A DNA stretch of 64,000 nucleotides, from positions 875 through 64,874 of the forward strand of contig DATJFF010000080.1 of NCBI GenBank assembly GCA_035495795.1, read 5' to 3'. The translations under genes were made by a program, and so were the position numbers. The notes beneath the pieces were generated by a model, which searched no databases, was not told the DNA's origin, and saw only the letters and a program-made list of their open reading frames with translations. Below are positions 11,926-62,140 of this stretch, piece after piece (positions within the stretch are counted from its first letter, which is position 1; the number at the start of each line of letters is the position of its first letter). The DNA comes from Vicinamibacterales bacterium (GTDB lineage: Bacteria; Acidobacteriota; Vicinamibacteria; Vicinamibacterales; UBA2999).

Positions 11926-11998
11926 GGGAAAGGCCAAAGGCCAAAGGCAAAAGGCAAAAGGCAGAAGGCAAAACAAAAAGCAGAAGGCAGAAGGCAGA
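11926..11998 (+). repeat. tandem heptamer array AAGGCAR, about 10 units
   Basis: gggaaaggccaaaggccaaaggcaaaaggcaaaaggcagaaggcaaaacaaaaagcagaaggcagaaggcag between the divergent MscS and AraC genes. Confidence 0.9.
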
Positions 11999-12048
11999 AC
12001 CTGTGCCTTGACGTTGCTGCCGGTCGCGCGACCTGTTAACGTCCAGCC

Positions 12049-12927
12049 GTGCCGCAGGCGATCAAGCCGAAGCGTTCGGATCCGGATCGGCTCCTCCTCG
12101 ACACCGGCGTCGTGTCAGCCGGCGAGTTCCGCTGCCCTGTCGATCACCCGCGCTTCGAAGACACCGGGCCGACCCGGCAGTACTGTTTCGTCTTTCCGCG
12201 AAACGCCTGCTGGATCGAGCACGAGGGCTCGCGGCCATTCGTCGCGGACTCCACGATCGTACCGCTCTACAACCAGGGTCATCCGTACCGCCGCGGCGTC
12301 ATCAGCGACGAAGGCGACCACACGGACTGGTTCGGCGTCGCGCCGTCAGTGCTTCGCGACATGGTCGCCGCACACGATCCGCTTCGCTCCGACCAGACTG
12401 AGGTCCTGTTTCCGACCTCCTTCGTGGCGGCGTCGGCGGAATCGTTTCTCGCGCAGCGGGTCGTGTTCCACCATCTGCGCTCGGGCATCACACCGGACTG
12501 GTTGTACCTCGAGGAGGTCGTGCTGACGCTGCTCGGCGACGTGCTCGAGCGCGCGTTTGGGAAGTCGGCGGCGCAGCCGCTCCCGCAAGCGCACACGGAA
12601 CTCGTCGAGCGCAGCCGCGAGCACCTGAATCGCACCTACTTGAAGAAGGAAGGCATCGCCGATGTCGCGGCCGCCGTGGGCACGTCCGAGTTCCATCTCT
12701 GCCGCATCTTCCGGCGCGCCACCGGTTCCAGCCTGCACGGCTATCGCACGGCTCTCCGCCTCCGACGCTCGCTCGAGTGGTTGCACGATGGAGGCGACAT
12801 CCTCACCGTCGCGCTCGAGGCCGGCTTCTCGCACCACAGCCACTTCACGGCTGCCTTCCACCGCGCCTTTGGCGTTGCGCCGTCGGCGTTCCGGACCGTC
12901 ATCTCGTCCCAGTTCCACCCCAGCTGA
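12049..12927 (+). CDS. AraC family transcriptional regulator
   Basis: C-terminal double HTH: HLCRIFRRATGSSLHGYRTALRLRRSLEWL ... GFSHHSHFTAAFHRAFGVAPSAFR; GTG start. Confidence 0.8.
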   Translation: MPQAIKPKRSDPDRLLLDTGVVSAGEFRCPVDHPRFEDTGPTRQYCFVFPRNACWIEHEGSRPFVADSTIVPLYNQGHPYRRGVISDEGDHTDWFGVAPSVLRDMVAAHDPLRSDQTEVLFPTSFVAASAESFLAQRVVFHHLRSGITPDWLYLEEVVLTLLGDVLERAFGKSAAQPLPQAHTELVERSREHLNRTYLKKEGIADVAAAVGTSEFHLCRIFRRATGSSLHGYRTALRLRRSLEWLHDGGDILTVALEAGFSHHSHFTAAFHRAFGVAPSAFRTVISSQFHPS

Positions 12928-12969
12928 GCACGATTCCGACAGCGGGCCGCGGCGGGCACGTGCTACTCC

Positions 12970-13494
12970 ATGCCGATGCGACTCCTGCTGCTGCTCGCTC
13001 TCTTGCAGACGCCGGCAACACCGGCCACTGCCGATGGTCCCTGTACCGCGGCCGAACATCACCAGTTCGATTTCTGGGTTGGCGACTGGGACGTGCGCGC
13101 CGCCACTGGACAGGCGCTGGGGACCAATCACATCACGTCCATCCTCGGCGGCTGTGCGCTGCAGGAGAACTGGTCCAGCGCCAACGGCAAGTCGCGTGGG
13201 GTTTCCATCAACGCCTTCGATCCGGCGGACCACCGCTGGCACCAGGAGTGGGTGGACAATTCCCCGTCGCGTCTCACGCTGACCGGTGGACTGGTCAGCG
13301 GACGGATGGTCATGGAACAGCGCGAGCCACCTTCAGCCGACGGCAAGGTCCAGGTCCAGCGGATCACCTGGACGCCGCTCGAGGACGGCCGGGTTCGGCA
13401 ACACTGGGAGGTCTCCGGCGATGGCGGCGCGACCTGGAAGACGTCGTTCGACGGTTATTACTCGCGCCGTCCGGCCGGGCCACCCGGGGTCTGA
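12970..13494 (+). CDS. hypothetical exported protein
   Basis: 174 aa; signal peptide MPMRLLLLLALLQTPATPATA; conserved-looking FDFWVGDWDV motif; family not confidently recognised. Confidence 0.55.
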   Translation: MPMRLLLLLALLQTPATPATADGPCTAAEHHQFDFWVGDWDVRAATGQALGTNHITSILGGCALQENWSSANGKSRGVSINAFDPADHRWHQEWVDNSPSRLTLTGGLVSGRMVMEQREPPSADGKVQVQRITWTPLEDGRVRQHWEVSGDGGATWKTSFDGYYSRRPAGPPGV

Positions 13495-13500
13495 CGGTGT

Positions 13501-13566
13501 CAAGGCAAAAGGCAGAAGGCAAAAGGCAGAAGAAGTCGAAACCAATTCCGCCATTTGCCTGCTGCC
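13501..13566 (+). repeat. AAGGCAR heptamer array (about 5 units) plus inverted partial copy
   Basis: caaggcaaaaggcagaaggcaaaaggcagaagaag, then tttgcctgctgcc at 13554-13566, which is the reverse complement of 13511-13523 with one mismatch. Confidence 0.85.
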
Positions 13567-13577
13567 TGACGCCTATC

Positions 13578-16500
13578 TCATCGCAAGCGGAAGTTCGCTG
13601 AGAGTGTCGAGCCGTCCGTCGTCGTCACGGCGACAACGTAACAGTAGCCGGCCCTCTTAGGCGTCTGCCAGTTGTAAACGAACTGCCCGGCCGCCGTGTC
13701 GTACCTCAACACAGTGCCGCCCGTGGCGACGAGTTCGACGTCGTCGGTCTGTCCGCCCGTGCACGATACTTCGGTGGCTCTGAGCTGGTTGACGATGCCG
13801 ATGTCGGTCAGTTCGGTCGATCCGGCGAACACCTCGAACTTGAGCGGGACGGTCGATCCGCCCTTCAAGACGTTCCACACACCCGCCATATCCACCGGGT
13901 CGTAGAAGCCGCTGAGGGTCCAAGCTGTCGCAACCGAGGAAACCGTGTACGTCACTGACGCCGTGCCAGCATTGCCGGCGCGGTCGACTGCGGAAGCGGT
14001 GACCGTGTGAGTTCCCAGCGCCGCGCTGTATCCCGAAACAACGCACGCGCCCTCCAGACCGGAGAGTGCGTCCAATGCGGAGCAGCCTGGAGCAGGCGGT
14101 ACGGACCCAAAGTTGTACGTCTGTCCGTCAGAAGGCCCTGCCACGAGCGACACGCTCGGCGAAGTCTTGTCCACCTTCACGGACGCGGTTGACAGCGCGC
14201 TGTTCCCAGCCCGATCCGCGCAGGTCGCGCTCACCGCGATCGCGCCGCCTTCACCCGACGACGTGCGGGAGTTCGTGCATTGGACCGCATCTACACCCGA
14301 GGCGGCATCGCCCCAGGTCCAGGTGACGGCCACGTCGCTATTGTTCCAGCCAGCCGCGTTTGGCAGCGGCAGCTGCGTGATTGCCGACGGGGCCGGCGCA
14401 GTCTTGTCGACACGAACCGAGTAAGGCGTCGACGCAGTGTTCCCTGCTACATCGGTGCATATCCCGGTCACCGTCAACGGGTTGCCCACGCCACTCGAGA
14501 CGCTCGTCGTCGGGCAGTGCACAGTATCGACGCCGGAGCCGCCAGCGTCGCCCCAGTTCCAAGTCACTGTCACGTCGCTGTTGTTCCACCCTGCGGCATT
14601 CGCTAGCGGCGACTGCACCGGCGACGCGGCCGGCCGTGTCTTGTCTACCTTTAGGGAGTAGGTATCGCTGGCAGTGTTCCCCGCCAGATCCGTGCAACTC
14701 GCCGGGACCGCAACCGCGGTGCCCTCGCCTGACGACGTACCAGCCGTCGTGCAACGGGCCGCGTCCACACCGGAGGTCGCGTCAGCCCACGTCCAGGTGA
14801 CGGTCACGTCGCCGTTGTTCCAGCCAGCTCCGTTCGCCAGCGGCAGCTGAGTGACGGCCGACCTGGTCGGCGCGGTCTTGTCTACCCGCACCGAGTACGA
14901 CGCGGTGGCGGGGTTCCCGGCCCGGTCGGTGCACGTAGCGGTCACGTTAACCGCGCTGCCCACGCCGGTCGACATGCGGGATGCAGCACAACTCACGGCG
15001 TCGATGCCGGACCCGCTGCCATCAGCCCAATTCCACTCCACGTTCACGTCGGTGTTGTTCCAGCCCGCGGCGTTGGCAAGCGGTGACTGCGCGGGCGAGG
15101 CGACGGGGCTGGTCTTGTCCAACCTTGCCGAGTACATCTCGCTGGCGACGTTCCCCGCCACGTCCTGGCACGTCGCGGTCGCCGATACGGGGTTCCCTTC
15201 TGCAGTCAACGTGCTGCTGGCCTGACAGTGGGTAAGATCCAGGCCAGATCCGGCCGCTTCGTCGGTCCAGTTCCAGGTGACTGTCACGTCGCTGTTGTTC
15301 CACCCAGCGGCATTGGCTCCCGGCGACTGGCTGATCGCCGATCCAGGGGCTGTCTTGTCCACCTTGACTGTGTAGGATGCGGTCCCCAGGTTCCCGGCGT
15401 AATCCCGGCAATCAGCCGTCAACGTAATGGCGCTGCCTTCACCGTTCGACGTCGATTCGAACGTGCAGCTCTCCTCGTCGACGCCGGTGCCGGCGCTATC
15501 GTCGCTCCAGTTCCAATGCACGACGACGTTCGTATTGTTCCATCCTGTGGCATTTGCAGGAGGCGTTTGCGTTGGTGCTGCCCTCGGCTCGATGCCGTCG
15601 GGCGGACGGCGATACTCCAGGACGCGGTGGTGGAAGACGTCGGCAACATAGAGGTTCCCCTGACGGTCCACGGACACGCTCTTCACCGCATTGAGCGTCG
15701 TGACGCTGGCCGGTTTTGGTGTGCCATCGGTGAAGGTGGACTGACCGTAGACCTGACTTGCCGTCGTGGCAGCGTCTGGAAAGAAGAGCACCCGATTGTT
15801 GCCCCGGTCGGCTACCCACAGATTGCCCTGACGATCCAGGCCGACACCCTCAGGCCCTCCCAGCTTGTCGGCCGCGGTTCCCGCGTTCCTGGTCGTGAAG
15901 TTGCCTGCCTGACCGTAGACGCGCGTGGCCGTAGTATTGCCATTCTCAAAGAACAACACCCGAACGTTGTCGCGATCGGCAACGTAGAGATTGCCGGCCT
16001 TGTCTACCGCCACTCCATAAGGGGCGTTCAGACTGGTGGCGGTCGGAGGTTGCGGGGGCAGACCGCTGATGGGCGAATCGAAGTCGGGCTGACCGTACTG
16101 GCGCTCCGCCTCGCTGTTGTTTCCCGCGCGATAGAACACCACACGGTGGTTGCCACGGTCGGCGATATACAAGTTGTCGTGCTGATCGAGCGCCACGGCG
16201 AAGGGCGCCGAGAGACCATTTTGTGTGGCGTGCAAGCTGCCGCGGTTGGCGGCGCGTCCTGAAAAACTTCCCTGACCGTAGACTATCGTGGCGGTCGTGC
16301 TGCTAGCCTCATAGACCAGCACCCGGTTGTTTCCTCTGTCGGCGACGTAAAGTCTGCCGAGGCTGTCCAGGGCCACGCCTTCGGGGCTGGACAGGCTGTT
16401 TGCGGTGGGCGTGCCGAACGAGTCATTGGCGGTAAGGCTGCCGTTCTGTCCGTACACGCGCGTCGCCACCGGGCTGCAAGGCACCTGATGGCAATCCTCG

Positions 16501-16808
16501 TTGGGGTCGCGAGCCTCGTAGAACAGCACGCGATGGTTTCCTGTATCCGCAACATAAACGTTGCCGAACTTATCCACCGTCACCCCGCCGGGCACGGCGA
16601 GACTCTGGTCGCTGGCGTTGCCCGCTGTAGCGCCTTTGTTCAAATCCGCGGTAGTAAAACTGCCGAGCTGGCCGTAGACGACGTCTGCCGTGCCATCTGG
16701 CGGCGTGCCGAGACCAACGATCGTTGCCGCGGCCAACAGGATCGCGAGAACGACTAACATCGAGGTCCTTGCGGTGAGGAGCTGATGCCTGGCTCGGTGT
16801 GGCGTCAT
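13578..16808 (-). CDS. giant exported protein: NHL-repeat beta-propeller + six tandem ~80-aa Cys-containing beta-sandwich repeats + Ig-like module + C-terminal PxKF-like domain
   Basis: Start trimmed to MTPHRARHQLL (TM/signal LVVLAILLAAATIV); six NHL-type blades (GNHRVLFYEA, GNNRVLVYEA, GNHRVVFYRA, DNVRVLFFEN, GNNRVLFFPD, FHHRVLEYRR); six repeats with AAGWNNSDVTVTWNW...C...C.D.AGN...V.VDKT.P; C-terminus GFYDPVDM...GSTVPLKFEV. Confidence 0.85.
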   Translation of the reverse strand: MTPHRARHQLLTARTSMLVVLAILLAAATIVGLGTPPDGTADVVYGQLGSFTTADLNKGATAGNASDQSLAVPGGVTVDKFGNVYVADTGNHRVLFYEARDPNEDCHQVPCSPVATRVYGQNGSLTANDSFGTPTANSLSSPEGVALDSLGRLYVADRGNNRVLVYEASSTTATIVYGQGSFSGRAANRGSLHATQNGLSAPFAVALDQHDNLYIADRGNHRVVFYRAGNNSEAERQYGQPDFDSPISGLPPQPPTATSLNAPYGVAVDKAGNLYVADRDNVRVLFFENGNTTATRVYGQAGNFTTRNAGTAADKLGGPEGVGLDRQGNLWVADRGNNRVLFFPDAATTASQVYGQSTFTDGTPKPASVTTLNAVKSVSVDRQGNLYVADVFHHRVLEYRRPPDGIEPRAAPTQTPPANATGWNNTNVVVHWNWSDDSAGTGVDEESCTFESTSNGEGSAITLTADCRDYAGNLGTASYTVKVDKTAPGSAISQSPGANAAGWNNSDVTVTWNWTDEAAGSGLDLTHCQASSTLTAEGNPVSATATCQDVAGNVASEMYSARLDKTSPVASPAQSPLANAAGWNNTDVNVEWNWADGSGSGIDAVSCAASRMSTGVGSAVNVTATCTDRAGNPATASYSVRVDKTAPTRSAVTQLPLANGAGWNNGDVTVTWTWADATSGVDAARCTTAGTSSGEGTAVAVPASCTDLAGNTASDTYSLKVDKTRPAASPVQSPLANAAGWNNSDVTVTWNWGDAGGSGVDTVHCPTTSVSSGVGNPLTVTGICTDVAGNTASTPYSVRVDKTAPAPSAITQLPLPNAAGWNNSDVAVTWTWGDAASGVDAVQCTNSRTSSGEGGAIAVSATCADRAGNSALSTASVKVDKTSPSVSLVAGPSDGQTYNFGSVPPAPGCSALDALSGLEGACVVSGYSAALGTHTVTASAVDRAGNAGTASVTYTVSSVATAWTLSGFYDPVDMAGVWNVLKGGSTVPLKFEVFAGSTELTDIGIVNQLRATEVSCTGGQTDDVELVATGGTVLRYDTAAGQFVYNWQTPKRAGYCYVVAVTTTDGSTLSANFRLR
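14142..15575 (-). repeat. in-frame tandem coding repeat, 6 copies of about 240 bp
   Basis: GWNN motifs at residues 451, 531, 611, 691, 769 and 849 of the track ORF give a period of 78-80 aa. Confidence 0.85.
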
Positions 16809-17069
16809 GGGACTGTCCTCGGATTCGCAGTAACCGTGGTGGTGACCGTTCCGGTCCTCGGCTGATCCCCCGCGGCCCGCACGCGCCCATTCCAATGTGG
16901 TCGGTTTGTGCCACCGGCATCGGCCGATTACGGACCCGATCTGGTACGCGCCATTCGGTTTTCGACTGGCTCACGACTGCCGTGTCTGGCCTTTACGGCG
17001 AACGGAGGTCGTGTTTAACTGTGGCCCGCCGCTGGGAAATGCCCAGCCCGGATGGTCGGAGGCCAGCCG

Positions 17070-19670
17070 ATGACGCGCGATGACTGGCAGCGCATCAAAC
17101 GTATTGCCGGCGAAGCCACCGAACGGCTTGCGCCCGAACGACCAGCGTTCATCGCCGAGGCGTGTGGCACCGACGCCGCGCTGCAGCGTGAGGTCGAAGC
17201 GCTGCTGAAGTCGATCGACGCTTCCGAGCACCTCTACGAAACGCCGGCGGTATCGATCGACGGCCGCTCCTTCGTTGACGCGTTTGGCCGACAGGCATTG
17301 GTGCCTGGCTCGATGGTCGGCTCATACCGGATCGTGCGCGAGATCGGCCGCGGCGGCATGGGCCGCGTCTTTCTGGGGGAACGGGCCGACGCGCTCTTCG
17401 AACGCCAGGTGGCCATCAAGATCGTCCGCCTCGGCGCCGATCCCGAGCTGCTCGTCGAGCACTTCACGCGCGAACGGCACATTCTCGCGGCGCTCGAGCA
17501 CCCGAATATTGCCCGACTGCTCGACGCCGGCGCCACCGACGACGGCCTGCCCTATGTCGTCATGGACTATGTGGCCGGCGTGCCAATTGACGAATATTGC
17601 GACGCCAATCATCTGGATCTTCGAGCGCGTCTCGAACTGTTTTGCCGCGTATGCGCGATCGTCGAGGCGGCGCACGAGCGGGCCATCGTCCACCGCGATC
17701 TGAAACCCGGCAACATCCTGGTCACCGCGGACGGCACGCCAAAGCTGCTGGACTTTGGTATCGCGAAGAATCTGGACGCCATGCCTGGAGGCACCGTCAC
17801 GCAGACGGCGCAGCGGTTACTCACGCCGATGAGCGCCGCGCCCGAACAGCTGTCCGGTGGCCCGACCACCCCGGCGATCGACGTGTACGCGCTCGGCGTT
17901 CTCCTCTATCAGCTCGTCGCGGGCGAGCATCCGTTCGCGGCGCAGGCCAACAACGCCGCGGCGCTCGAGCGCGCCATCCTCCGCGGCAGTCCGCGGCCGC
18001 CATCGTCCGTGAAGGTGACGACTGGTGATCTGCGGCCGATCAGCACGCAGCTTGGCGCCGCCACCGCGCTGGCCATCGATACCGTCACGCTTACCGCGCT
18101 TCGCAAGGAGCCCGCCGAGCGTTATCGCTCGGTCCGGGCCCTCGCCGACGACGTGCGCAGCGTTCGCGCCGGCGCGCGGCCGATCGGCGCGGGCGCGTTG
18201 GCGTTCGCGCCCTTGTCGGTCGTCAGTCGATACCGACGCGTTCTCTTGTTGAGCGCTGCGGTGATCGCGACGACGGCGGCGGCAGCCTGGTGGCTGGCCG
18301 AACCGGCTCCGGCCGTAGCGAAGGCGCCAGCAATGCAAACGGTCGCGGTGCGGCCGTTCCGTGACACTCCGGATGATGACAACAAGCTCGGTTGGGGGAT
18401 GGCGGATGCGCTGGTCACGCGACTGGGGGCCGTCCACGGACTCCGGGTGCGCGTGATCGTCGATGGCAGTCAGTCGCAGGACGCGGACCTGCCGGTGGCC
18501 GCCGGCGCAGGAGACATCGACGCTTTCATCGACGGCACGATCGAGCGCGCGGGTGGCCGGGTTCGCGTCCACTCGCGTCTGGTCGATGCGCGCAGCCGGG
18601 CCGCGATGTGGAGCTCACAATCCGAGGGAGACAGCGCGGAGCTCTTTGCGATTCAGGATCGGCTGAGCCTCGACATTGCGCGGAGACTCCTGCCGCAATT
18701 CGACGGATCCGGAATGCGGGCGAGATCGGGCACCGGCAGCGAGCAGGCCTACGATGCCTTCGTGCAGGGCCGCTACTACCTGAGCCTCGGAACACCGGAT
18801 TCCGTTCGCACGGCGCTCTGGCACTTCGAACGCTCGGCCGCCGCGGATCCCTTGTTTGCCTCGGCCCAGGCCGAATTGGCAACAACCTACGCCTGGCTGC
18901 GAAACCTGTCGCCGCTCTCTCCTCCCGACCAGTCGAGGCGCGGCCGCGAAGCCGCGACCCGCGCCCTGGGTCTCGATCCATTGCTCGGCGAGGCGCACGC
19001 GGCGCTCGGTGTCTTCATGCTCATCGACGACTGGAACTGGCCGGAGGCCGAGAGGGAGCTGCGCCGCGCGATCGAGCTCAGCCCCAATGAACAGCAGGCG
19101 GTGGTGTTCTACGCCGCCGGATTAGCCGCTCACCACAGGTTCGACGAAGCGCTGGAACACCTGCGCCGGGCCGCCGACAACGACCCGGTTTCGCGATCGC
19201 TGCCCAACCAGCTCGTGCGCGTGCTGTACATGTCCCGGCGCTTTCACGAGGCCGTCGACGAATGCGACCGGGTGCTGGCCACCGAGCCATCGTTCCGCAT
19301 GTCGTTTTGCGGACTCTCCCGCATCGAGGCTGGCGCCGGGCAGGATGGATTCGCGGAACTCGAGATGATCGCTCGCCAAGCGCGGCGGGCGGGGAATCTG
19401 AGCGCACTCGGCTACGCGTACGCTCGGGCTGGCAGAACCGCCGAGGCGCTGTCGCTGGCCGACGATATCGAACATCTGGCCGAGGAAGAGGGCTGCGTCC
19501 CGTACTATGTCGCGGAAGTGAAGGCGGGCCTCGGCGACCGCGAAGGAGCTGCGGCGCAACTCGAGCGAGCCCGCCAGGCTCACTGTCCCACCGTCATGAT
19601 GCGAATCCAGGTCGATCCCAAGTTCGATCTATTTACCGCTCAGGAACGCGCTCGGTTCCTGACGCCGTGA
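17070..19670 (+). CDS. Ser/Thr protein kinase with TM segment and C-terminal TPR region
   Basis: Start at MTRDDWQRIKRI, preceded by GGAGG; kinase motifs GRGGMGRVFLG, VAIK, HRDLKPGNIL, DFGIAK; TM VLLLSAAVIATTAAAAWWL; TPR-like helical repeats to the C-terminus. Confidence 0.85.
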   Translation: MTRDDWQRIKRIAGEATERLAPERPAFIAEACGTDAALQREVEALLKSIDASEHLYETPAVSIDGRSFVDAFGRQALVPGSMVGSYRIVREIGRGGMGRVFLGERADALFERQVAIKIVRLGADPELLVEHFTRERHILAALEHPNIARLLDAGATDDGLPYVVMDYVAGVPIDEYCDANHLDLRARLELFCRVCAIVEAAHERAIVHRDLKPGNILVTADGTPKLLDFGIAKNLDAMPGGTVTQTAQRLLTPMSAAPEQLSGGPTTPAIDVYALGVLLYQLVAGEHPFAAQANNAAALERAILRGSPRPPSSVKVTTGDLRPISTQLGAATALAIDTVTLTALRKEPAERYRSVRALADDVRSVRAGARPIGAGALAFAPLSVVSRYRRVLLLSAAVIATTAAAAWWLAEPAPAVAKAPAMQTVAVRPFRDTPDDDNKLGWGMADALVTRLGAVHGLRVRVIVDGSQSQDADLPVAAGAGDIDAFIDGTIERAGGRVRVHSRLVDARSRAAMWSSQSEGDSAELFAIQDRLSLDIARRLLPQFDGSGMRARSGTGSEQAYDAFVQGRYYLSLGTPDSVRTALWHFERSAAADPLFASAQAELATTYAWLRNLSPLSPPDQSRRGREAATRALGLDPLLGEAHAALGVFMLIDDWNWPEAERELRRAIELSPNEQQAVVFYAAGLAAHHRFDEALEHLRRAADNDPVSRSLPNQLVRVLYMSRRFHEAVDECDRVLATEPSFRMSFCGLSRIEAGAGQDGFAELEMIARQARRAGNLSALGYAYARAGRTAEALSLADDIEHLAEEEGCVPYYVAEVKAGLGDREGAAAQLERARQAHCPTVMMRIQVDPKFDLFTAQERARFLTP

Positions 19671-19734
19671 GACGCTCTCCATGTCCGGCGCGTCTTTGAC
19701 CCTCAGCCGCGATCGTGCTTAACTCACTCGCGCG

Positions 19735-20316
19735 ATGGACGACCCGCGGGAATTCGACATCACGCGGCTCCTACAGAGCTGGCAGCATGGCGATCGCGAG
19801 GCGTTCGACCAACTTGTCCCCCTGGTGTACGAGGAGCTGCGGCTGCTGGCGTCCCGGCAGCTGGCCCGCGAGTGGCGGGCCAATCGGCTGCAGACGACCG
19901 CCATCGTCAGCGAAGCCTACATGAAGCTGTTCGGGCAGCGCGAGGTGGACTGGCAGAACCGAGGCCATTTCTTTGCGATAGCCGCGCAGATGATGCGGCG
20001 AATCCTGGTCGATCATGCTCGACGCGAACGGCGGCACAAGCGTGGCGGCGGAGTGATGCACGTGGAGGTCACGGAGGCGGCGAACGTCGCGGAGCCCGCG
20101 GCCGTCGATGCGGTGGATGCGCTGGCATTGGACCGGGCATTGGAGAAGCTCGAGGAACTGGATCCCGAGCAGGCCAGGATTGTCGAGCTGCGGTTCTTCG
20201 GCGGCCTCTCGATCGACGAGACGGCAGCCACCCTCCAGGTCTCACCATCAACGGTCAAGCGCGATTGGGCGGTGGCCAGGGGCTGGCTCTACGCGGAGCT
20301 GACGGCAACCTCCTGA
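19735..20316 (+). CDS. ECF-type RNA polymerase sigma factor (Sigma70_ECF / TIGR02999-like)
   Basis: ITRLLQSWQHGDREAFDQLVPLVYEELRLLASRQL...HFFAIAAQMMRRILVDHARR...LSIDETAATLQVSPSTVKRDW, characteristic of this ECF subfamily. Confidence 0.85.
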   Translation: MDDPREFDITRLLQSWQHGDREAFDQLVPLVYEELRLLASRQLAREWRANRLQTTAIVSEAYMKLFGQREVDWQNRGHFFAIAAQMMRRILVDHARRERRHKRGGGVMHVEVTEAANVAEPAAVDAVDALALDRALEKLEELDPEQARIVELRFFGGLSIDETAATLQVSPSTVKRDWAVARGWLYAELTATS

Positions 20317-20331
20317 CACCTCCCTACTTCC

Positions 20332-20380
20332 GCCTTCTGCCTTCTGCCTTTTGCCTTCTGCCTTTTGCCTTCTGCCTTCC
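20332..20380 (-). repeat. CTGCCTT/CCTTYTG heptamer array (reverse complement of AAGGCAR), about 7 units
   Basis: gccttctgccttctgccttttgccttctgccttttgccttctgccttcc fills most of the 66-nt gap between the convergent sigma and CotH genes. Confidence 0.9.
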
Positions 20381-20382
20381 CC

Positions 20383-26198: not shown

Positions 26199-26287
26199 TG
26201 GAGACTCCCTCTGAGAAAGGCTGGTGGAGTATAGCCCGCCCGCGGCGGCGGGGCGTATCCTCTCGGGTGACGGGAAGGGACACATCA

Positions 26288-26854: not shown

Positions 26855-26856
26855 AA

Positions 26857-26924
26857 GGGGACAGTCCCTTTTCAAAATCGTCAGGGGACTGTCCCCGTTC
26901 CAGATTCGTCAGGGGACTGTCCCC
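26857..26924 (+). repeat. three copies of the palindrome GGGGAC(A/T)GTCCC(C) at 27-28 bp spacing
   Basis: ggggacagtccc (26857), tcgtcaggggactgtcccc (26878-26896) and an identical 19-mer (26906-26924); located between the DinB stop and the aminotransferase start. Confidence 0.85.
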
Positions 26925-26991
26925 TGCCGCGAATTGTCAGCGCGCGGATTCTGCGTACAATCGGCCGTCACCTTACAAAGGGGGGGCTCCA

Positions 26992-39018: not shown

Positions 39019-39088
39019 GCGGGTGCGACGGGTGCGACGGGTGCCGCATGTGCGACGGGTGCGGTGCGACAAGTCCGACGGGTGCGCC
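39019..39088 (+). repeat. degenerate tandem nonamer array GGGTGCGAC, about 7 units
   Basis: gcgggtgcgacgggtgcgacgggtgccgcatgtgcgacgggtgcggtgcgacaagtccgacgggtgcgcc immediately after the ADOP stop codon. Confidence 0.85.
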
Positions 39089-51175: not shown

Positions 51176-51224
51176 GGTCTTGGGGTCTTAGGGTCTTGGG
51201 TCTTGGGGTCTTGAGGTCTTGAGG
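51176..51224 (+). repeat. tandem octamer array GGTCTTGR, about 6 units
   Basis: ggtcttggggtcttagggtcttgggtcttggggtcttgaggtcttgagg fills the 56-nt gap between convergent genes. Confidence 0.9.
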
Positions 51225-51226
51225 TT

Positions 51227-52928: not shown

Positions 52929-53867
52929 TCACTTCGTGCCGAGTTCGACGATCGCAATCGCGTTCCAGTCGTTCATCGGGATCACGAGCCGGTTGCGCTT
53001 CGAGTCGTACATCATCGACGCGGCGCTGGGAATGCCCGACGCGACGATCTCCGCCTTCTGTCCTGGCCGAATCCGCGACACCGTTCCCTGGCGCACGCTG
53101 CTCACGTACTTGGTGCCATCGGCGAGCACGACCAGCCCATCGTTGCCGGCATCAACGGCCTGTTCGGTGTTGAGCAGCTTCCCGTCCGGCGCGAACGTCA
53201 ACACGTCGCGGGTGCCGATATTGACGACGACGATGTTGCCTTTGGCGTCGAAGGCGATGCCGTTCGGCAAGTTGAGCGGCGCGCCGCTGACGAACACCGA
53301 CGACTCACCCTGCGCCGTCACTTTGTAGACCTTCCAGTTCGCCGGGCTCTGATCGCCGGTCTGCGTTGCGTAGATTGTGCCGTCGGCGGCCACTTCCAGA
53401 TCGTTCAGTCGTGTGGCGCCGGTGACTTGGGCGCTGCCGAGCGGCTGCCCTGTCTTCATGTCGAACCACCGCACGGTATCGATGTCCACCACGTAGAGCC
53501 GGCCGTTGGCAATGTCGCTGCCGAGCGGGTGATTGAGCGTCAGCCCCGCTCGCGATACTCCGATCCACTTGAGCGTGTGCACCGAGCCGTCCGGGTTGAC
53601 GAGCGACACGTAACCATCGTTCGGCGCCATCTCCTGCGGCATCCCGGCGTTGACCGAGACATACAGGTCGCGCGCCTCGTCGTACGACAGGCTCTCCGAG
53701 AAGCGGAAGCTGCCATACACCTTGGTGTTCGGCATCAGCTTCAGCGGCTCGCCAGCGACGAACGGGCCCGACGCCGCGGGCGCGGCCGGCGCCGTCTGCG
53801 CGACGGCAAAGGTGCCGCAGCCGAGCAAGGCTGCAGCGGTAACGGTGGCTACGAAACGGCGACGCAT
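52929..53867 (-). CDS. exported six-bladed beta-propeller protein (SMP-30/gluconolactonase/NHL-like)
   Basis: Start trimmed to MRRRFVATVTAAALLGCGTFAVAQ with AAGGAG upstream; repeated blade-like motifs (DLYVSVN, RLYVVDI, TIYATQTG, PNGIAFDAKGNIVVVN). Confidence 0.65.
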   Translation of the reverse strand: MRRRFVATVTAAALLGCGTFAVAQTAPAAPAASGPFVAGEPLKLMPNTKVYGSFRFSESLSYDEARDLYVSVNAGMPQEMAPNDGYVSLVNPDGSVHTLKWIGVSRAGLTLNHPLGSDIANGRLYVVDIDTVRWFDMKTGQPLGSAQVTGATRLNDLEVAADGTIYATQTGDQSPANWKVYKVTAQGESSVFVSGAPLNLPNGIAFDAKGNIVVVNIGTRDVLTFAPDGKLLNTEQAVDAGNDGLVVLADGTKYVSSVRQGTVSRIRPGQKAEIVASGIPSAASMMYDSKRNRLVIPMNDWNAIAIVELGTK

Positions 53868-53878
53868 TGAGTCTCCTT

Positions 53879-53957
53879 GGGGTCTTGAGGTCTCGAGGTC
53901 TTCGGGTCTTGAAGTCTCGAGGTCTTGGGGTCTTGGGGTCTTGGGGTCTTGGGGCTT
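53879..53957 (+). repeat. tandem octamer array GGTCTTGR, about 10 units, ending in four GGGG runs
   Basis: ggggtcttgaggtctcgaggtcttcgggtcttgaagtctcgaggtcttggggtcttggggtcttggggtcttggggc. Confidence 0.9.
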
Positions 53958-53990
53958 TCCTATCTCCTGTCTCCTATCTCCTGCCTCCTG
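53958..53990 (+). repeat. tandem CTCCTRY heptamer/octamer array
   Basis: tttcctatctcctgtctcctatctcctgcctcctg; shares the 17-mer cctatctcctgtctcct with the array at 62117-62133. Confidence 0.9.
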
Positions 53991-54011
53991 TTCTACGATA
54001 CCGCACCGACC

Positions 54012-56490: not shown

Positions 56491-56528
56491 GGGGCTTGGG
56501 GCTTGGGGCTTGGGGCTTGGGGCTTGGG
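56491..56528 (+). repeat. GGGGCTT heptamer x5
   Basis: ggggcttggggcttggggcttggggcttggggcttggg, starting 2 nt after the amidase stop. Confidence 0.95.
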
Positions 56529-56550: not shown

Positions 56551-56587
56551 TGGGGTCTGAAGCCTGGAGCCTGAAGTCTGGAGCCTG
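56551..56587 (+). repeat. short octamer array GAAGYCTG/GAGCCTGA
   Basis: ggggtctgaagcctggagcctgaagtctggagcctg. Confidence 0.8.
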
Positions 56588-57757: not shown

Positions 57758-57761
57758 GGGC

Positions 57762-57837
57762 GGGGTCTCGAGGTCTTGAGGTCTTGAGGTCTTGAGGTCT
57801 TGAGGTCTTGAGGTCTTGAGGTCTTGAGGTCTTGGGG
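57762..57837 (+). repeat. tandem octamer array GGTCTTGA, about 9 units
   Basis: ggggtctcgaggtcttgaggtcttgaggtcttgaggtcttgaggtcttgaggtcttgaggtcttgaggtcttgggg. Confidence 0.95.
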
Positions 57838-57847: not shown

Positions 57848-57967
57848 GCAGATCACAGATAGATCACTAGATCAATCGATAGATCACCAGATCGCGAGAT
57901 AGATCTCCAGATCTCGAGATCGCCAGGTTGATCACGAGATCACCAGCTCTCCAGATCATCAGATTCG
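57848..57967 (+). repeat. GATC-dense 8-bp periodic array (AGATCNNN)
   Basis: 11 GATC tetramers counted by hand in 120 nt, mostly spaced 8 or 16 nt apart. Confidence 0.9.
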
Positions 57968-58016
57968 CCGGCGCCGGAGCGGAACAACCCCGCCCACCTC
58001 AGCGTCTAGGGACGCT

Positions 58017-60530
58017 ATGGGCGATCTGAAGGTCTCGATCCGGCGCCTCTCCAAGACTCCCGGATTCAGCGCCGCCGCCATCGTTGTCCTGGCGCTGGGC
58101 ATCGGACTGAACGCGGCGATGTTCAGCATCGTGTATGCGATGACTCTTGCCGGGCGCGGCTTTCCGGATCCAGACCGCCTCGTCCAGCTCTACGCGCGAG
58201 ACGCGCGCACCGGCGATTACCGGGCGTTCTCCTACCCGGTCTACCAGGAGGTTGCCTCCGGCGCGGAGATGTTCAGCGGCGTTCTCGCGCACGCTCCCAC
58301 TCTCGTTGGAATCGGGACGGGAACGGAGTCCAGGCGCGCGCTCGCGGCCATCGTCAGCGCCAACTACTTCACCGTCCTCGGCGTGCCGCTATTGAAGGGA
58401 CGGACCTTCACCGAGCAGGAAGATCACCCGGGGCAGGATCTGCCGGTCGTCGTCGCGAGCTACGCGTACTGGCAGCGGACCGGCTTCGATCCGGAGCTGG
58501 TTGGCGGCCAGATCCGCGTCAACGAGCGCGCCTTCACGATCATCGGGATCACGCCTCGAGGTTTCAGCGGGACGATGAGCGTGGTCGGGCCGGAGCTGTT
58601 CTTGCCACTGGGCGTCTTCCATTCGCTGGCGACCGAGTTCATGGAAGGTGCCGACCGTTCGCTGCTGCGTGCGAATGCGTACAACCTGTTTCTGGTCGGC
58701 CGCTTGAAGGACGGCATCAGCGAAGCGGCCGCCGGCAAAGGCGTCGAGCTGTTCGGCCAAAGCCTGGCGCGGAGCTTCCCCGCGGAGCACGAGCATCACA
58801 CGCTGTCGCTGACGGCGCTGCCGAAGTTCGGCACCAGCACGTCGCCCTCCGACGAGAGCGTGATCAAGATGCTCGGCGTCGTGATGATGGGGATGACGAC
58901 CGCGGTCCTGCTCACCGTGTGCCTCAATCTGGCGTCGATGCTGCTGGCGCGCGGCCGCGCCCGCCGCAAGGAGTTCGCCGTGCGGCTGGCGATCGGCAGC
59001 AGCCGGGCCCGCATCGTCCGGCAGTTGCTGGTGGAAGGACTGCTGCTCTCGACAGTCGGCGGCGTCTTTGGCATGGGTCTGGGCCTTTACGCCGTGGACG
59101 CACTCGTGGCGTCGCTGTCGGCCATCCTGCCGATCACGATCGTGCTGCAGGGCCTGACCACGCCGGTTCTTGTCGCCGGCGCCGCCGGCTTCTGCCTGCT
59201 CGCCACCCTCGGGTTCGCGCTCGGACCAGCGATGAAGCACTCCGGCGCGGACATCCTGTCGGACCTCAAGGTCCAGGCCGGCGACGATCCCGCGCCCCGC
59301 AAATGGCGGCTGGTGCCACGAAATCCACTCGTCGCGGCGCAGGTGGCCCTTTCGATGTGCCTGCTGATCGCTGCCGGTCTCTTCTTCCGCATGGCGCTCG
59401 GGTCGGCCAGCACGGAGCTCGGGTTCAACGCCAACGACACGGTGCTCGCGGAGGTGGACGCGCAGCTGGGTGGCCTCAGCGAGGCCCAGGCGCTCGCGAT
59501 CTACGAGCGGCTCGAACAACGGCTGGCGAAGCTGCCCGGCGTCGCATCGGCCAGCGTCGGCGCGCTCGTTCCGCTCGGCATGATCAACTTGAGCAAGGAC
59601 GTCCAACGGGCCGGCCTGAACCCTCTGCCCGGTGCGAAGCCGCCGACACCGGAGGAGGGACAGGCGTTCGACGCCCGGACCAATGCGATTGGCCCGGGCT
59701 ATTTCGATGCGATGGGCGTTCCTGTCCTGCGCGGACGCGCATTCACCGCTGGCGAGGCGTTCGGCGGCGGCCCATCGCGAGTCGCCATTCTCGACGAGGC
59801 GCTGGCGCGCAAACTCTGGCCAGACGGGTCGGCGCTGGGGCAGCAGATCCAGTGGGCGGCGCGGAGCGGGCGCGGGCCCAGCCAGCCGATGGAAGTGATC
59901 GGGATCGTCGCCGCGACGCGATCCGGTCTGTTCGAACGCGAGCCCGGAGGCGCGGTGTACTTGCCAATCGGCCAGGAATTCGTGAGCGACGTGCACCTGC
60001 ACGTTCGTCCGCTCCGATCAGACCCGGCGCTGGTCGACCTGGTGCGGCGAGAAGTCCGAGCCGAGGCGCCAGGAGTGCCGCTTTTCGGCGTCCGCACCTT
60101 TGCGACGCACCTCGAAACCGCAGCGGAGTACTGGCTGCTGCGGCTGTCCACGCTGATGTTTGCGTTCTTCGGCGCGATGGCGATGATCGTGGCGCTGGTT
60201 GGCATCTACGGTGTCACGGCCTACGCCGTGGTCCGCCGCACTCGCGAGATCGGCGTGCGGATTGCGGTCGGCGCCCGGCCTGCGGCAGTCCTGCGGCTCA
60301 TCCTCGTGGAGAATCTCGCGACGGCAGTCGCGGGCATCGCGGCGGGATGGCTGCTTGGGATCGGCGTGGGACGTGTCATGGCCAGCGTCTTCGTCGACGT
60401 CCCGGCTTTCGATCCCTGGATCTTCAGCCTCGTTCCCACGTGCTTCGTCCTTGCCGCCCTAGGCGCCACATGGACGCCGGCCCGGCGCGCCAGCGCCGTC
60501 AACCCCATCAGCGCGCTCCGCGCCGAGTAG
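58017..60530 (+). CDS. ADOP-family duplicated FtsX/MacB-like permease
   Basis: 837 aa; MGDLKVSIRRLSKTPGFSAAAIVVLALGIGLNAAMFSIV; two FtsX modules; no adjacent PadR or ATPase. Confidence 0.9.
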   Translation: MGDLKVSIRRLSKTPGFSAAAIVVLALGIGLNAAMFSIVYAMTLAGRGFPDPDRLVQLYARDARTGDYRAFSYPVYQEVASGAEMFSGVLAHAPTLVGIGTGTESRRALAAIVSANYFTVLGVPLLKGRTFTEQEDHPGQDLPVVVASYAYWQRTGFDPELVGGQIRVNERAFTIIGITPRGFSGTMSVVGPELFLPLGVFHSLATEFMEGADRSLLRANAYNLFLVGRLKDGISEAAAGKGVELFGQSLARSFPAEHEHHTLSLTALPKFGTSTSPSDESVIKMLGVVMMGMTTAVLLTVCLNLASMLLARGRARRKEFAVRLAIGSSRARIVRQLLVEGLLLSTVGGVFGMGLGLYAVDALVASLSAILPITIVLQGLTTPVLVAGAAGFCLLATLGFALGPAMKHSGADILSDLKVQAGDDPAPRKWRLVPRNPLVAAQVALSMCLLIAAGLFFRMALGSASTELGFNANDTVLAEVDAQLGGLSEAQALAIYERLEQRLAKLPGVASASVGALVPLGMINLSKDVQRAGLNPLPGAKPPTPEEGQAFDARTNAIGPGYFDAMGVPVLRGRAFTAGEAFGGGPSRVAILDEALARKLWPDGSALGQQIQWAARSGRGPSQPMEVIGIVAATRSGLFEREPGGAVYLPIGQEFVSDVHLHVRPLRSDPALVDLVRREVRAEAPGVPLFGVRTFATHLETAAEYWLLRLSTLMFAFFGAMAMIVALVGIYGVTAYAVVRRTREIGVRIAVGARPAAVLRLILVENLATAVAGIAAGWLLGIGVGRVMASVFVDVPAFDPWIFSLVPTCFVLAALGATWTPARRASAVNPISALRAE

Positions 60531-60580
60531 GAGCCAGGAGACAGGCAGGAGGCAGGAGGCAGGAGGCAGGAACTAGGAAG
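60531..60580 (+). repeat. tandem AGGAGRC array (Shine-Dalgarno-like units)
   Basis: gagccaggagacaggcaggaggcaggaggcaggaggcaggaactaggaag. Confidence 0.9.
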
Positions 60581-60680
60581 CAGATCAGAAGATAGATCGC
60601 CAGATCAAAAGATCGATCACCAGATCACGAGATCCGTAAGATTGATCACCAGATCACGAGATCACGAGATCGCCAGATTC
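60581..60680 (+). repeat. GATC-dense 8-bp periodic array (AGATCNNN)
   Basis: 11 GATC tetramers counted by hand in 100 nt; same unit family and orientation as 57848-57967. Confidence 0.9.
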
Positions 60681-60683
60681 GCG

Positions 60684-62042
60684 TTACTTGATCAAGTACC
60701 AGTTTTCCTGCCGCGGACGGAAGAAGCGCCAACCGTCCTCGTCGAGCCAGGCGACGTCTTCCATCATCACGAAGACTTTCTGACCGTCCCATTCGGGGAC
60801 GGCAGTCGCGGTGTTCAGCTCGATTGAAATATAGGAGCCGCCGCGCAGCCGGCGGCGGGCCTGCTGCGCGATGTCCTGGCGCTGCGACGACCGGAAATCG
60901 ATCGACGCACCCAGCCCGTGACCCTGGGCGCCAACCGGGTGGGAATAGATCATCGCTTCGATTTTCCGTTCTCCCATTTCCGCCATCGTGTCGAGATACA
61001 CGTCGCCGGCGAGCTTTCCGGGCTTCGAGTGGCGCCGCATCACCGCGTCCTGCAGGGCGTTGGTGTTGGCCATCGCACGCTTCAGGCCTTCCGGAACGTC
61101 GGTCTCGCCCTCGCGAAGGACGTAGGCCATCTTCTGCCAATCGGTGTCGAGTCCCATGTAGGTGAGGCCGAAGTCCACGTGCACGACATCGCCGCGCTCG
61201 ATCACGAGGCGCTCGGGCGCGACCGCGAGAAATCCGCGCGAGGTGGAATTGGTCCCGCCGCGGCGCTGCACCCGGAGATCGGGCTGGAACCATGTCCTCA
61301 CACCATGGGCGCCGAGCGCATCGTAGAGCCAGTTGCGGACGTCACCGACCGTCGTTCTGCCGGGCGTGATGACTTCGCTCGATAGCGCGCGCCGCGTCAG
61401 GTACTCGGTCAGCGCCACGGCCGTGGTGTAGTGCTCTTTCTCCTCCGGAAGGCGAGTGTCGAGGTATTCCTCGATTAGATCCGCCGCGCTCGTGAACCGG
61501 GCCACGTACTTCGGGCCGACCGCCTTGCTGATGAACGCGTGGGTTTCGTAGGTGAGCGACCGCGTCACGCCGCGGGGCCCGCCGATGCCCAGCGCGATCG
61601 TTTTTGGATCGTACTGCTCGACCAGCTGCGCCAGGCGCTTGTCGGCCGGGACCGGCTCGTCGGGGGACTCGAAGAACCGTTTGAGGTTGTCCTCTGAGTA
61701 CCCGGTGATGGCAATGCGCTTCAGTCCGTCGGCGCCCGTATCGACGAACACGAAGAAATCGCGGTTCCCCGCGTAAGGGCGCGGCGGCGCCACGTAGGCG
61801 GTGAGCGGGTCGTCGTGAAACTCTTCGTTCACGACGATCCACATGCTCACGCCGTGCTTGCGCATCAGCGGAAGCAGCATCGCGTGGCGCTGCTCCAGCC
61901 AGTCCTCGCGAACCGCAATCTGCCGCGAGAGCGCCAGCAGCTCAGGCGCATCGGCGGTTGGCTTCTGGGTCGAGACCGGCACCGCCGTCAAAGCGGCCAG
62001 CGCCAGCGCCAGCGGCGCGACGGCGTGTCGAGTCAGAAGCAT
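60684..62042 (-). CDS. exported M24-family metallopeptidase (Xaa-Pro aminopeptidase-like)
   Basis: Start trimmed to [26 protein letters not shown]; pita-bread fold motifs [45 protein letters not shown]. Confidence 0.85.
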
Positions 62043-62065
62043 GTTCGCATTGTAGAAGAGCCTTC

Positions 62066-62140
62066 CCAGTTCCTGATTCCTAGTTCCTGGGTTCCTGCTT
62101 TCCCCTGGCTCCTGCCTCCTATCTCCTGTCTCCTGCCTGC
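62066..62140 (-). repeat. tandem array of AGGARNN/AGGAGRC units (minus-strand reading) in the leader of the M24 peptidase gene
   Basis: Plus strand cagttcctgattcctagttcctgggttcctgctttcccctggctcctgcctcctatctcctgtctcctgcctgcc; overlaps the last 7 codons of the upstream gene. Confidence 0.9.

Follow-up and report, generated by a model that had tools for sequence, protein, structure and literature searches.

Repeats of seven or eight nucleotides that stand in tandem in intergenic regions have been known in cyanobacteria since 1990 and in Xanthomonas and Beggiatoaceae since 2015, and both their origin and their function are still unexplained. Here we describe arrays of this kind in a stretch of 64,000 nucleotides from a Vicinamibacterales bacterium (Acidobacteriota; assembly GCA_035495795.1, contig DATJFF010000080.1, positions 875 to 64,874), called below the window. 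The short tandemly repeated repetitive (STRR) sequences of heterocystous cyanobacteria comprise several heptamer families, arranged in tandem and dispersed over many non-coding loci of one genome. The three cyanobacterial STRR heptamers are credited to Mazel et al. 1990 in a secondary source (PMC4692102, ref 39).

Rehm et al. (2015) described the heptamers GGGAATC in Xanthomonas and GGGGAYT in Nostoc (PMC4692102). These repeats were 89-93% intergenic and were located at a distance of 28 nt from the 5' open reading frame (ORF) compared to 160 nt from the 3' ORF, whatever the orientation of the ORFs. They formed convergent pairs, were found between divergent ORFs in only 7-8% of cases, overlapped stop codons and varied extensively in length between species. 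Their neighbours belonged to all functional classes, no link to mobile elements was seen, and a function was not identified (PMC4692102). For another heptamer, MacGregor (2015) counted 169 sets of TAACTGA, which are located before start codons and scattered patchily over the phyla (PMC4679880). A modest effect of heptamer repeats on the expression of a reporter was described in a Nostoc preprint (10.1101/2022.06.06.494920).

The arrays of the window represent this known, unexplained repeat class in a new phylum; they are denser than in the published cases and include several unit families. All the features of the STRR/GGGAATC class that we tested were present, save the preference for four units and a general G-quadruplex (G4) motif. 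As in the repeats of Rehm et al., we observed head-to-tail G-rich units of ~7 nt at many loci, ~90% of them intergenic, lying near the ORF 5' of the G-rich strand in any orientation and often overlapping its stop codon. Convergent pairs of plus- and minus-strand arrays were likewise frequent and arrays between divergent ORFs rare, copy number and length varied among relatives, the neighbours were of all classes and a link to mobile elements was absent. The differences, besides the phylum, are that units of 7, 8 and 9 nt from several unrelated families replace one dominant heptamer, that the paired arrays usually belong to different families rather than being simple inverted copies, and that the arrays have 4-12 units with no preference for four and with a canonical G4 motif in some of them only. 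The local density is also ~6x higher (14 per 64 kb vs ~186 per 5 Mb), and units were replaced at the same site between strains that are 96.5% identical.

With respect to the STRR sequences, as far as these are covered by the secondary citation, the arrays have other unit sequences in another phylum. The TAACTGA sets of Beggiatoaceae, Cyanobacteria and Bacteroidetes are similar in that arrays of a heptamer stand at >100 intergenic loci and are spread patchily over phyla (PMC4679880), and in that the G-poor arrays found here (AGATCNNN in the window, CAATCNN in relatives) lie on the sense strand just before start codons. However, those sets are short (2-6 copies), have a single unit and are mostly located before starts, while most arrays described here follow stops.

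An earlier note on this stretch, made from its sequence without database searches, had called such arrays unusual for a bacterial chromosome. This description has to be narrowed, as publications on Xanthomonas, Nostoc and Beggiatoaceae describe the same phenomenon along with its placement rules (PMC4692102, PMC4679880); in particular, the rules of placement given below are not new, having been reported for GGGAATC and GGGGAYT (PMC4692102). In the literature we found no description of such repeats in Vicinamibacteria or other Acidobacteriota, and none for Vicinamibacter together with tandem repeats.

Tandem arrays and their mutability

With Tandem Repeats Finder (TRF; period 6-10, at least 3 copies, TRF score of at least 40), 14 arrays with a total length of 645 bp were detected in the window, compared to a mean of 0.08 and a maximum of 1 in 50 dinucleotide-preserving shuffles. 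An array was present at every coordinate listed in the earlier note. The TRF periods were 7, 8 and 9, and the copy numbers ranged from 4 to 12 per array without a mode at four units. The window (G+C 64-70%) is 93.1% coding and 6.9% non-coding; still, 13 of the 14 arrays had zero coding overlap, and the remaining one, A10 (numbered as in Table 1), runs into the last ~20 nt of one ORF. An array of at least 20 bp was present in 9 of the 36 intergenic regions, or in 10 when A10 is counted. The gaps of A3 and A5 are almost pure array. Convergent, tandem and divergent gaps are all represented, as had been stated before.

The AAGGCAR, GGTCTTGR and AGGAGRC units were found at three loci each within 64 kb, and AAGGCARAAGGCAR had 15 matches at 3 loci compared to 0.03 expected. 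With respect to the longer strings said to recur exactly, CCTATCTCCTGTCTCCT is indeed present at both 53959 and 62118 (0 expected), while the three loci given for GGTCTTGAGGTCTTGAGG were an overstatement: the string is exact at 51207 and from 57772, and has one mismatch at 53881. The six unit types distinguished originally are real as recurring types but reduce to fewer related families. In the arrays of the window and of related genomes, the units GGGGTCTT, GAGGTCTT, GGGTCTT, GGGGCTT, GGGACTT, GGTCCTGR and GGGGCCT are intermixed, and GCAGAAG (a form of AAGGCAR) differs by a single base from GCAGGAG (a form of AGGAGRC). Since units intermix and differ by one base, the six types are therefore fewer, evolving families. 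The units GGGGTCTT, GAGGTCTT, GGGGCTT and GGGGCCT make up one family, and GCAGAAG, GCAGGAG and ACAGGAG, one substitution apart, a second one, to which the looser TAGGAAC-type units possibly belong. Variants originate in point mutations or 1-nt insertions or deletions and then spread within an array, so that the types intergrade and close strains have different units at one site.

For comparison between strains, contigs were collected by exact-protein look-ups and one metagenome scan; they originate from independent soil metagenome assemblies and are 96.5-99.9% identical to the window. Assemblies made independently from several samples, and from two data sources, showed the same arrays at the same sites and with the same flanks. 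Therefore, the arrays are not assembly artefacts. Short-read contigs often break within or beside arrays, as is expected of multi-copy repeats. In nine contigs, 97.5-99.9% identical to the window, we counted 8 insertion or deletion (indel) events in 850 aligned array bases compared to 4 in 31,272 other bases. The indel density was 9.4 vs 0.13 per kb, 74-fold higher in arrays (Fisher p = 1e-10), and single-nucleotide polymorphisms were 3.4-fold denser within arrays. All the array indels that we inspected were whole units of 7, 8 or 21 bp. Whole-unit expansion and contraction thus occurs far above the flanking rate, as expected for replication slippage, and the suggestion that the arrays are slippage-prone was borne out by the copy-number differences in arrays spanned by other assemblies.

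One additional 7-bp unit was present in A1 of contig L006, and 3 more units in the left arm of A2 of contig L218, where the right arm was unchanged. The unit variants of A3 differed in order and number in L002 and L003, and a 7-bp unit of A5 was polymorphic for presence or absence among strains. A6a had one 8-bp unit fewer in L005 and an altered unit pattern in L117, extra GGTTCCTAGTTCCT units were found at A6b in L117 and L001, and A8a had one 8-bp unit fewer in L001. The AGATCNNN array A8b was near-constant between strains, with one base changed in L117; the low variation of this degenerate array is consistent with slippage requiring near-perfect repeats. At a larger distance, two metagenome-assembled genomes (MAGs) that are 93% identical have kept a composite array (G-rich, then CAATCNN units) in the same gap with different copy numbers. 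Relatives at 63-70% protein identity showed no arrays beside the ortholog, with a synteny too poor to interpret.

Besides the copy number, the unit itself was found to change. Contig L117 has ~96.5% DNA identity with the window, and the protein of the gene between A7 and A8 is identical. At the A8a site, (GGTCTTGA)9 of the window corresponds in L117 to (GGGGCCT)~4 with the same stop codon and the same flanks. At the A7 site, (GGGGCTT)5, (CTGRAGC)4 and ~60 nt of unique DNA have given way to (GGGGTTCKC)6 and unrelated DNA, and at A6 a run of GGTTCCTAGTTCCT units was gained.

Placement, polarity and structure

The placement of arrays was analysed in the acidobacterial loci together with the window. 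Arrays were present in 15 of 30 convergent gaps, in 32 of 83 tandem gaps and in 4 of 28 divergent gaps; the divergent gaps differed from all others (4/28 vs 47/113) with Fisher p = 0.008. Coding overlap was seen in 4 of the 66 classified arrays of the related loci. When a same-strand gene was located 5' of a GGTCTTGR array, the array started at -11 to +3 nt from the stop codon in ~24 of 34 cases. In the window, 0-10 nt separate the stop codon from the array start, and some ORFs terminate within the array (A9, A10).

We observed a strong polarity. In the 30 nt past array-covered stops, the sense strand had G>C in 56 cases and C>G in 16 (p = 2.4e-6), compared to 108 and 83 for array-free control stops. 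In array-rich gaps, the left half of the top strand was G-rich and the right half C-rich in 24 cases, with 0 cases of the opposite order (p = 1.2e-7); the respective numbers for array-free gaps were 19 and 13. This rule held in each gap type, with 9:0 in convergent, 13:0 in tandem and 2:0 in divergent gaps. Where two neighbouring arrays had opposite skew, the order was likewise G-rich then C-rich in 24 cases and C-rich then G-rich in 0, a count that does not depend on gene calls; in other phyla the ratio was 7 vs 1. The G-rich then C-rich pairs of the window are A2, A6, A8 and A9, with 0 pairs in the reverse order. An array was closer to the neighbour 5' of its G-rich strand at a ratio of 84:16, in all four gene arrangements, and the ratio was similar for GGTCTTG-type (44:7) and other units (40:9).

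The proximity to the 5' neighbour was also the same for arrays with a canonical G4 motif (43:8) and without it (41:8), and we rejected G4 as the source of the polarity. Unit perfection was compared between the 5' and 3' ends of arrays and showed no gradient (17 vs 18), for which reason directional growth or trimming of the arrays was rejected as well. The possibility left in the earlier note, that the arrays could be confined to the window with an invariant copy number and no positional bias, is contradicted by the relatives, by the indels and by the polarity.

The suggestion that the arrays form structures held for some of them only. With fold z-scores computed from mononucleotide shuffles, 3 of the 10 array regions of the window fold well and the other seven do not. 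The hairpin of A2 is strong on both strands (z = -6.1 on +, -5.8 on -), while A7 (z = -3.6) and A8a with A8b (z = -4.7) fold, with G-U pairs, on the + (transcribed) strand only. Over 141 gaps of the related loci, the median minimum z was -1.52 with an array vs -1.39 without one, and values below -3 were reached by 27% vs 26% of the gaps. Array gaps are therefore no more structured than array-free gaps, and the hypothesis of a general hairpin or structured RNA was rejected. Among the four canonical G4 motifs of the window, three are inside arrays (A5, A6, A7).

The terminator scan of the window gave 7 sites compared to 6.3-6.7 expected; none of the hairpin and U-tract terminators was located downstream of a gene end at an array, and one site, 11884-11901, was upstream of A1. 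The count of sigma-70 promoters in the window was equal to the shuffle expectation, and a search of the window with the 4227 covariance models of Rfam 15 at the gathering score gave 0 matches. CRISPR arrays, with repeats of 24-48 bp and unique spacers of about equal length, were ruled out by units of 7-9 bp standing directly head-to-tail. Repetitive extragenic palindromic (REP) elements, bacterial interspersed mosaic elements (BIME) and miniature inverted-repeat transposable elements (MITE) were ruled out since the units are not palindromic; pairing with an inverted copy is confined to A2 and some related loci.

Distribution in other genomes and the individual arrays

When 185,579 species-representative genomes were scanned for (GGTCTTGR)3, at least 109 loci were detected; none of the 109 listed matched the flanks of the window. 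Among the matches listed, most were from Acidobacteriota (Vicinamibacterales, Thermoanaerobaculia and unclassified MAGs), and the MAG SJ725 had at least 21 separate 8-kb loci with GGTCTTGR. Also among the matches listed, several loci each were found in several Hymenobacter species, in a MAG labelled Bifidobacteriaceae (69% G+C) and in one labelled Cyanobacteriota (65% G+C), while many other taxa had single matches. These two MAGs, represented by the loci of CAZLBU01... (L009, L011, L055, L106) and JAIEMQ01... (L017, L023, L041, L043, L067, L090), carry the Acidobacteria-like families GGTCTTGR, GGGGCTT, AAGGCAG and AGGGATC; their labels may be wrong, or the repeats may be more widespread than expected.

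Arrays of GGGGCTT accompany those of GGTCTTGR in the acidobacterial loci, and further families, such as CTTCGTGN, ACTCCCG, GTTCCCG and CAATCNN, are particular to each related genome. No array of AAGGCAR or AGATCNNN was present in ~0.8 Mb of DNA from related genomes; these families are thus not shared in the manner of GGTCTTGR and GGGGCTT. In viral contigs, AAGGCAR x3 was found in 44, compared to 32 and 17 for two permuted control heptamers, and GGTCTTGR x3 in only 3. The idea of a unit special across kingdoms was rejected, as the permuted heptamers also occurred in viral contigs. Isolated cross-phylum matches can be taken as background because the permuted controls also occur sporadically there; the multi-locus enrichment in Acidobacteriota exceeds that background.

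Two patterns of related genomes deserve a separate description. A composite in L012, L038, L039, L077 and L081 consists of a G-rich GGTCTTGR/GGGGCTT array followed by (NCTTCGTG)n and invariably ends with CTTCGTGGTTTCY; it is present in the MAG SJ725 and in Vicinamibacterales TPBF_176, and adjoins the end of an opposite-strand gene. The 13-mer GGGTCTTGAGGGG occurs in arrays of related genomes that mix GGTCTTGA with GGTCTTGG, while A8 of the window consists of GGTCTTGA throughout and has no more than the core GGTCTTGAGG. The 13-mer is also present in the 3' arm of the T-phi terminator of phage T7. The likeness is probably a coincidence; arrays with GGGTCTTGAGGGG could yield spurious matches in screens for vector contamination.

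The arrays of the window are listed in Table 1.

Table 1. Coordinates, repeat units and gene context of the arrays (ECF, extracytoplasmic function)
Array	Positions	Strand	Units and copies	Context
A1	11917..11996	+	(AAGGCAR) x ~12 (TRF); G>C on +	divergent gap, MscS 11021-11869 (-) / AraC 12049-12927 (+) (Pfam)
A2 left arm	13502..13532	+	(AAGGCAR) x 4.4	begins 7 nt past DUF1579 stop (12970-13494, +); convergent gap, DUF1579 gene vs NHL-repeat gene (13578-16895, -)
A2 right arm	13554..13568	-	partial inverted copy TTTGCCTGCTGCCTG	pairs with left arm as hairpin
A3	20327..20379	-	(CTTCTGC) x 7.6 on +, equal to (GCAGAAG) on -	fills 66-bp gap, ECF sigma gene (stop 20316, +) / CotH gene (stop 20383, -)
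A4	39020..39063	+	(CGGGTGCGA) x 4.9	4 nt past stop of MacB/FtsX-type permease 36352-39015 (+)
A5	51176..51225	+	(GGTCTTGR/GGGTCTT) x 6.4; canonical G4 motif	fills 56-bp convergent gap, molybdopterin oxidoreductase (stop 51170, +) / SCO1 (stop 51227, -)
A6a	53876..53954	+	(GGGGTCTT/GAGGTCTY) x 9.9; canonical G4 motif	starts 8 nt (53868-53875) off SGL gene ATG (52929-53867, -)
A6b	53958..53991	-	(CTCCTRY) x 4.9 on +; C-rich on +	ends 20 nt 5' of amidase ATG (54012); G-rich/C-rich pair with A6a
A7a	56491..56528	+	(GGGGCTT) x 5.4, perfect copies; canonical G4 motif	begins 1 nt past amidase stop (56489)
A7b	56557..56587	+	(CTGRAGC) x 4.4	66 nt upstream of following ATG (56654); partial complement of A7a (GGCUU:AAGCC and G-U pairs)
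A8a	57764..57834	+	(GGTCTTGA) x 8.9	begins 6 nt past stop at 57757
A8b	57849..57964	+	degenerate (AGATCNNN) x ~14; C>G on +	52 nt upstream of permease ATG (58017)
A9a	60529..60583	+	(AGGAGRC/AGGCAGG)	overlaps TAG stop of permease 58017-60530 (+)
A9b	60581..60678	+	degenerate (AGATCNNN) x ~12; C>G on +	ends 5 nt from stop of convergent M24 peptidase gene (60684-62042, -)
A10	62063..62138	-	(TTCCYRG) + (CTCCTGY) units on +; G-rich on - (sense) strand	M24 start (62042) / DAO oxidoreductase ORF (62119-63525, -)

Several arrays adjoin or contribute to signals of the neighbouring genes. Directly 3' of A1, the region 11997-12051 has a promoter-like TTGACG ... TGTTAAC with the GTG start of the AraC-family gene ~10 nt further on, which suggests, from the sequence, that the leader of this gene is very short or absent. 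Past A3 (20379-20383), the window enters the CotH gene, while L002 (3929-5642) and L003 (3771-4176), which come from different samples, enter another gene; this alternative gene has a GTG start and is preceded by TTGACG...TACGAT. The alternative junction shares the TTGACG-type layout, with the final unit of the array supplying part of TTGAC. The sole other contig with CotH stops inside the array. The differing junction may be due to a rearrangement at the array or to a mis-join in one assembly. For the SGL gene, part of the ribosome-binding site AAGGAG (53868-53880) comes from the last A6 unit, and the TAG stop of the DAO oxidoreductase (62119-62121) is located inside A10, so that the final ~6 codons are array-encoded. 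In the array (GGTCTTGA)n of A8a, each of the three frames contains TGA.

In the AGATCNNN arrays, a 5-nt core is invariant while the 3-nt spacers are free. Each array carries 11-12 GATC sites (11 in 57849-57964; the other array is 60581-60678) at a spacing of 8 or 12 bp, and GATC is ~3-fold over-represented window-wide, with 578 observed vs 196 expected from base composition. A repeat distinct from the 7-9 bp arrays, operator- or REP-like, is located at 26856-26940, flanked by genes for a DinB-family protein (26267-26854, +) and for a class-V aminotransferase (26992-28245, +): the palindrome GGGGACTGTCCCC occurs x3 at a 28-bp spacing, with a ...TCGTC spacer after each copy.

The genes flanking the arrays are ordinary chromosomal genes for permeases, oxidoreductases, an amidase, a peptidase and regulators. 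The gene content of the window is typical of Acidobacteriota, with three duplicated permeases of the MacB/FtsX type, two pairs in which an ECF sigma gene adjoins a Ser/Thr-kinase gene, CarboxypepD_reg/TonB-type outer-membrane proteins, CHAT/TPR and NHL-repeat proteins and ordinary metabolic enzymes. This content, together with the repeats shared with relatives, would suggest an acidobacterium like the Vicinamibacteria. The two ECF-sigma/kinase pairs (17052-20316 and 33553-35935) have opposite gene order; such pairing is frequent in Acidobacteriota and Planctomycetota. Among the genes of the 64-kb window there were no transposase, integrase, reverse-transcriptase or mobile-element genes, and no primase-polymerase or Ku/LigD genes either, 64 kb being a small sample.

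Origin of the arrays and their significance

We consider it probable that the arrays are long-unit simple sequence repeats (microsatellites of 7-9 bp) of the STRR/GGGAATC class that renew themselves by slippage, with placement and orientation filtered by a strand-asymmetric process and with incidental local effects. The arrays would mainly be self-renewing and largely sequence-nonspecific filler that a lineage-specific slippage bias keeps regenerating, while a strand-asymmetric process would filter their position and orientation. The filter could be selection at RNA ends, where a G-poor unstructured leader would be tolerated before starts and G-rich sequence would be tolerated or useful after stops; alternatively, it could be a strand-asymmetric mutational process at the DNA level. 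Given the independence of gene orientation, the DNA-level process is more parsimonious than two RNA-level filters, but the gradient test (17 vs 18) gave no support to it. Single arrays would have incidental effects as stop codons, part of a ribosome-binding site, G4 motifs or terminator-like hairpins; there would be no single dedicated function, and the arrays would not be on/off phase-variation switches.

Several points weigh against this reading. Neutral slippage explains neither the recurrence of GGTCTTGR and GGGGCTT across loci and two acidobacterial classes nor the 24:0 polarity. The replacement arrays of L117 are G-rich again and start at the stop codon again, which could reflect selection for a G-rich array at the site. 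In addition, the related loci were all chosen through the GGTCTTGR unit type, and the gene map consists of ORFs that were scored by a codon model, for which genes confirmed with Pfam had served as training set, with uncertain start codons.

It appears rather unlikely that the arrays serve at gene ends as dedicated structural elements of RNA or DNA, in which case G-rich arrays after stops would act as G-quadruplexes, or as hairpins with the following C-rich array, in termination, R-loops or protection of mRNA 3' ends, and G-poor arrays before starts as unstructured translation leaders. The G-richness of the sense strand directly after stops (56:16) would fit such elements, as would the location of 3 of the 4 canonical G4 motifs of the window in A5-A7, the hairpin of A2 on both strands along with the folding of A7 and A8 on the transcribed strand only, and the array plus inverted-array hairpins of several related loci. 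Hairpin and U-tract terminators are not enriched in the window, so other means must end transcripts; replacement arrays retain their G-rich character and position; and oligonucleotides of the Xanthomonas and Nostoc repeats form G4s in vitro, the repeats being transcribed (PMC4692102). However, array gaps were no more structured than array-free gaps, the polarity was alike without a canonical G4 motif (41:8 vs 43:8), one arm of A2 gained 3 units while the other did not change to compensate, and close strains differ freely in both copy number and unit identity. Moreover, the polarity ignores gene orientation, so that two separate RNA-level rules would have to coincide. REP/BIME and BOX elements are similarly intergenic, modular and often located at gene 3' ends, with some hairpin-forming pairs, but REP and BOX are imperfect palindromes or modules of 20-45 bp and not head-to-tail units of 7-9 bp, and no RAYT-like gene was seen. 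That polarity ignores gene orientation would fit the footprint of a mutational process directed by DNA ends or strand structure, with no role of selection; we regard this origin as quite doubtful. In one form of it, G-rich units would be added to 3' ends at breaks in gaps and then joined, as in head-to-head telomere fusions; in the other, G-strand structure would block replication and one-directional deletions would strip dispensable DNA on the 5' side, until arrays come to abut genes and only pairs ordered G-rich then C-rich are stable. In dog-1 mutants of C. elegans, deletions induced by G4s are known to have such a one-directional polarity. The proximity to the 5' neighbour in all four gene arrangements, the absence of C-rich then G-rich pairs (24:0), and array starts at -11 to +3 nt from stops in ~24 of 34 cases, sometimes supplying the stop codon, all agree with such a footprint. 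Short G-rich units also resemble telomeric repeats, and the polarity matches head-to-head fusions; yet the paired units differ and are usually unrelated, which argues against a single template, and the lack of a perfection gradient (17 vs 18) along the arrays gives no sign of growth or trimming from one end. The polarity was independent of the G4 motif, and the window has no reverse transcriptase, primase-polymerase or Ku/LigD gene, in what is a small sample of 64 kb. There is little to recommend, at this stage, the broader claim that the orientation-independent polarity is a DNA-level footprint (3'-end addition with joining, or one-directional deletion) in several bacterial phyla; if true, a specific mechanism of repair or replication, and not a regulatory role, would account for the STRR/GGGAATC-type repeats.

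Multivalent sites for a sequence-specific DNA- or RNA-binding protein (a nucleoid protein, an S1/Csp/CsrA-like protein or, for AGATCNNN, GATC binding or methylation) are a very unlikely explanation. Exact units are conserved over many loci in Vicinamibacterales and Thermoanaerobaculia, the strain-stable AGATCNNN arrays with their fixed 5-nt core and 3-nt spacers do resemble an array of binding sites, and a protein partner was proposed for TAACTGA and for the Nostoc heptamers (PMC4679880; bioRxiv 10.1101/2022.06.06.494920). Conversely, there are many unit families per genome, units were exchanged at the same site in close strains, ~0.8 Mb of related genomes contains neither AAGGCAR nor AGATCNNN arrays, and no candidate protein was identified. 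The earlier note had also thought of contingency loci; in the classical sense, in which the copy number switches the neighbouring genes on and off, we find this highly improbable. The copy number is indeed highly mutable, with frequent slippage-driven change of unit number as in the contingency simple sequence repeats of Haemophilus and Neisseria, A1 and A6 are located in divergent gaps, and A6 contributes to a ribosome-binding site. Those repeats, however, have units of 1-7 nt in ORFs or core promoters of surface or restriction-modification genes, whereas most of our arrays are just past the stops of ordinary genes or in convergent gaps, and others stand 5' of promoter-like elements. None shifts the frame inside an ORF or is located between -35 and -10 elements, the neighbours are metabolic, transport and regulatory genes, gaps with promoters only are depleted of arrays (p = 0.008), and Rehm et al. 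concluded likewise for their repeats (PMC4692102). Finally, there is next to no chance that the arrays are assembly artefacts: breaks of short-read contigs in or next to arrays, and the A3 junction that differs from two other assemblies, would be in line with it, but the arrays are spanned, with identical sites and flanks, by assemblies that were made independently from several samples and from two data sources. Slippage with strand-asymmetric filtering is the reading that we favour.

In practice, short-read assemblies break at the arrays and may be mis-joined there; as strain markers, the arrays would be highly discriminating. The phenomenon is now seen in a third, unrelated and environmentally dominant lineage, the soil Acidobacteriota, at a higher local density and with unit families side by side. 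Since the same placement rules hold there, these rules look general and not quirks of a lineage. The strain-level data, with 74-fold more indels in arrays and units replaced at the same site, offer new handles on the mechanism.

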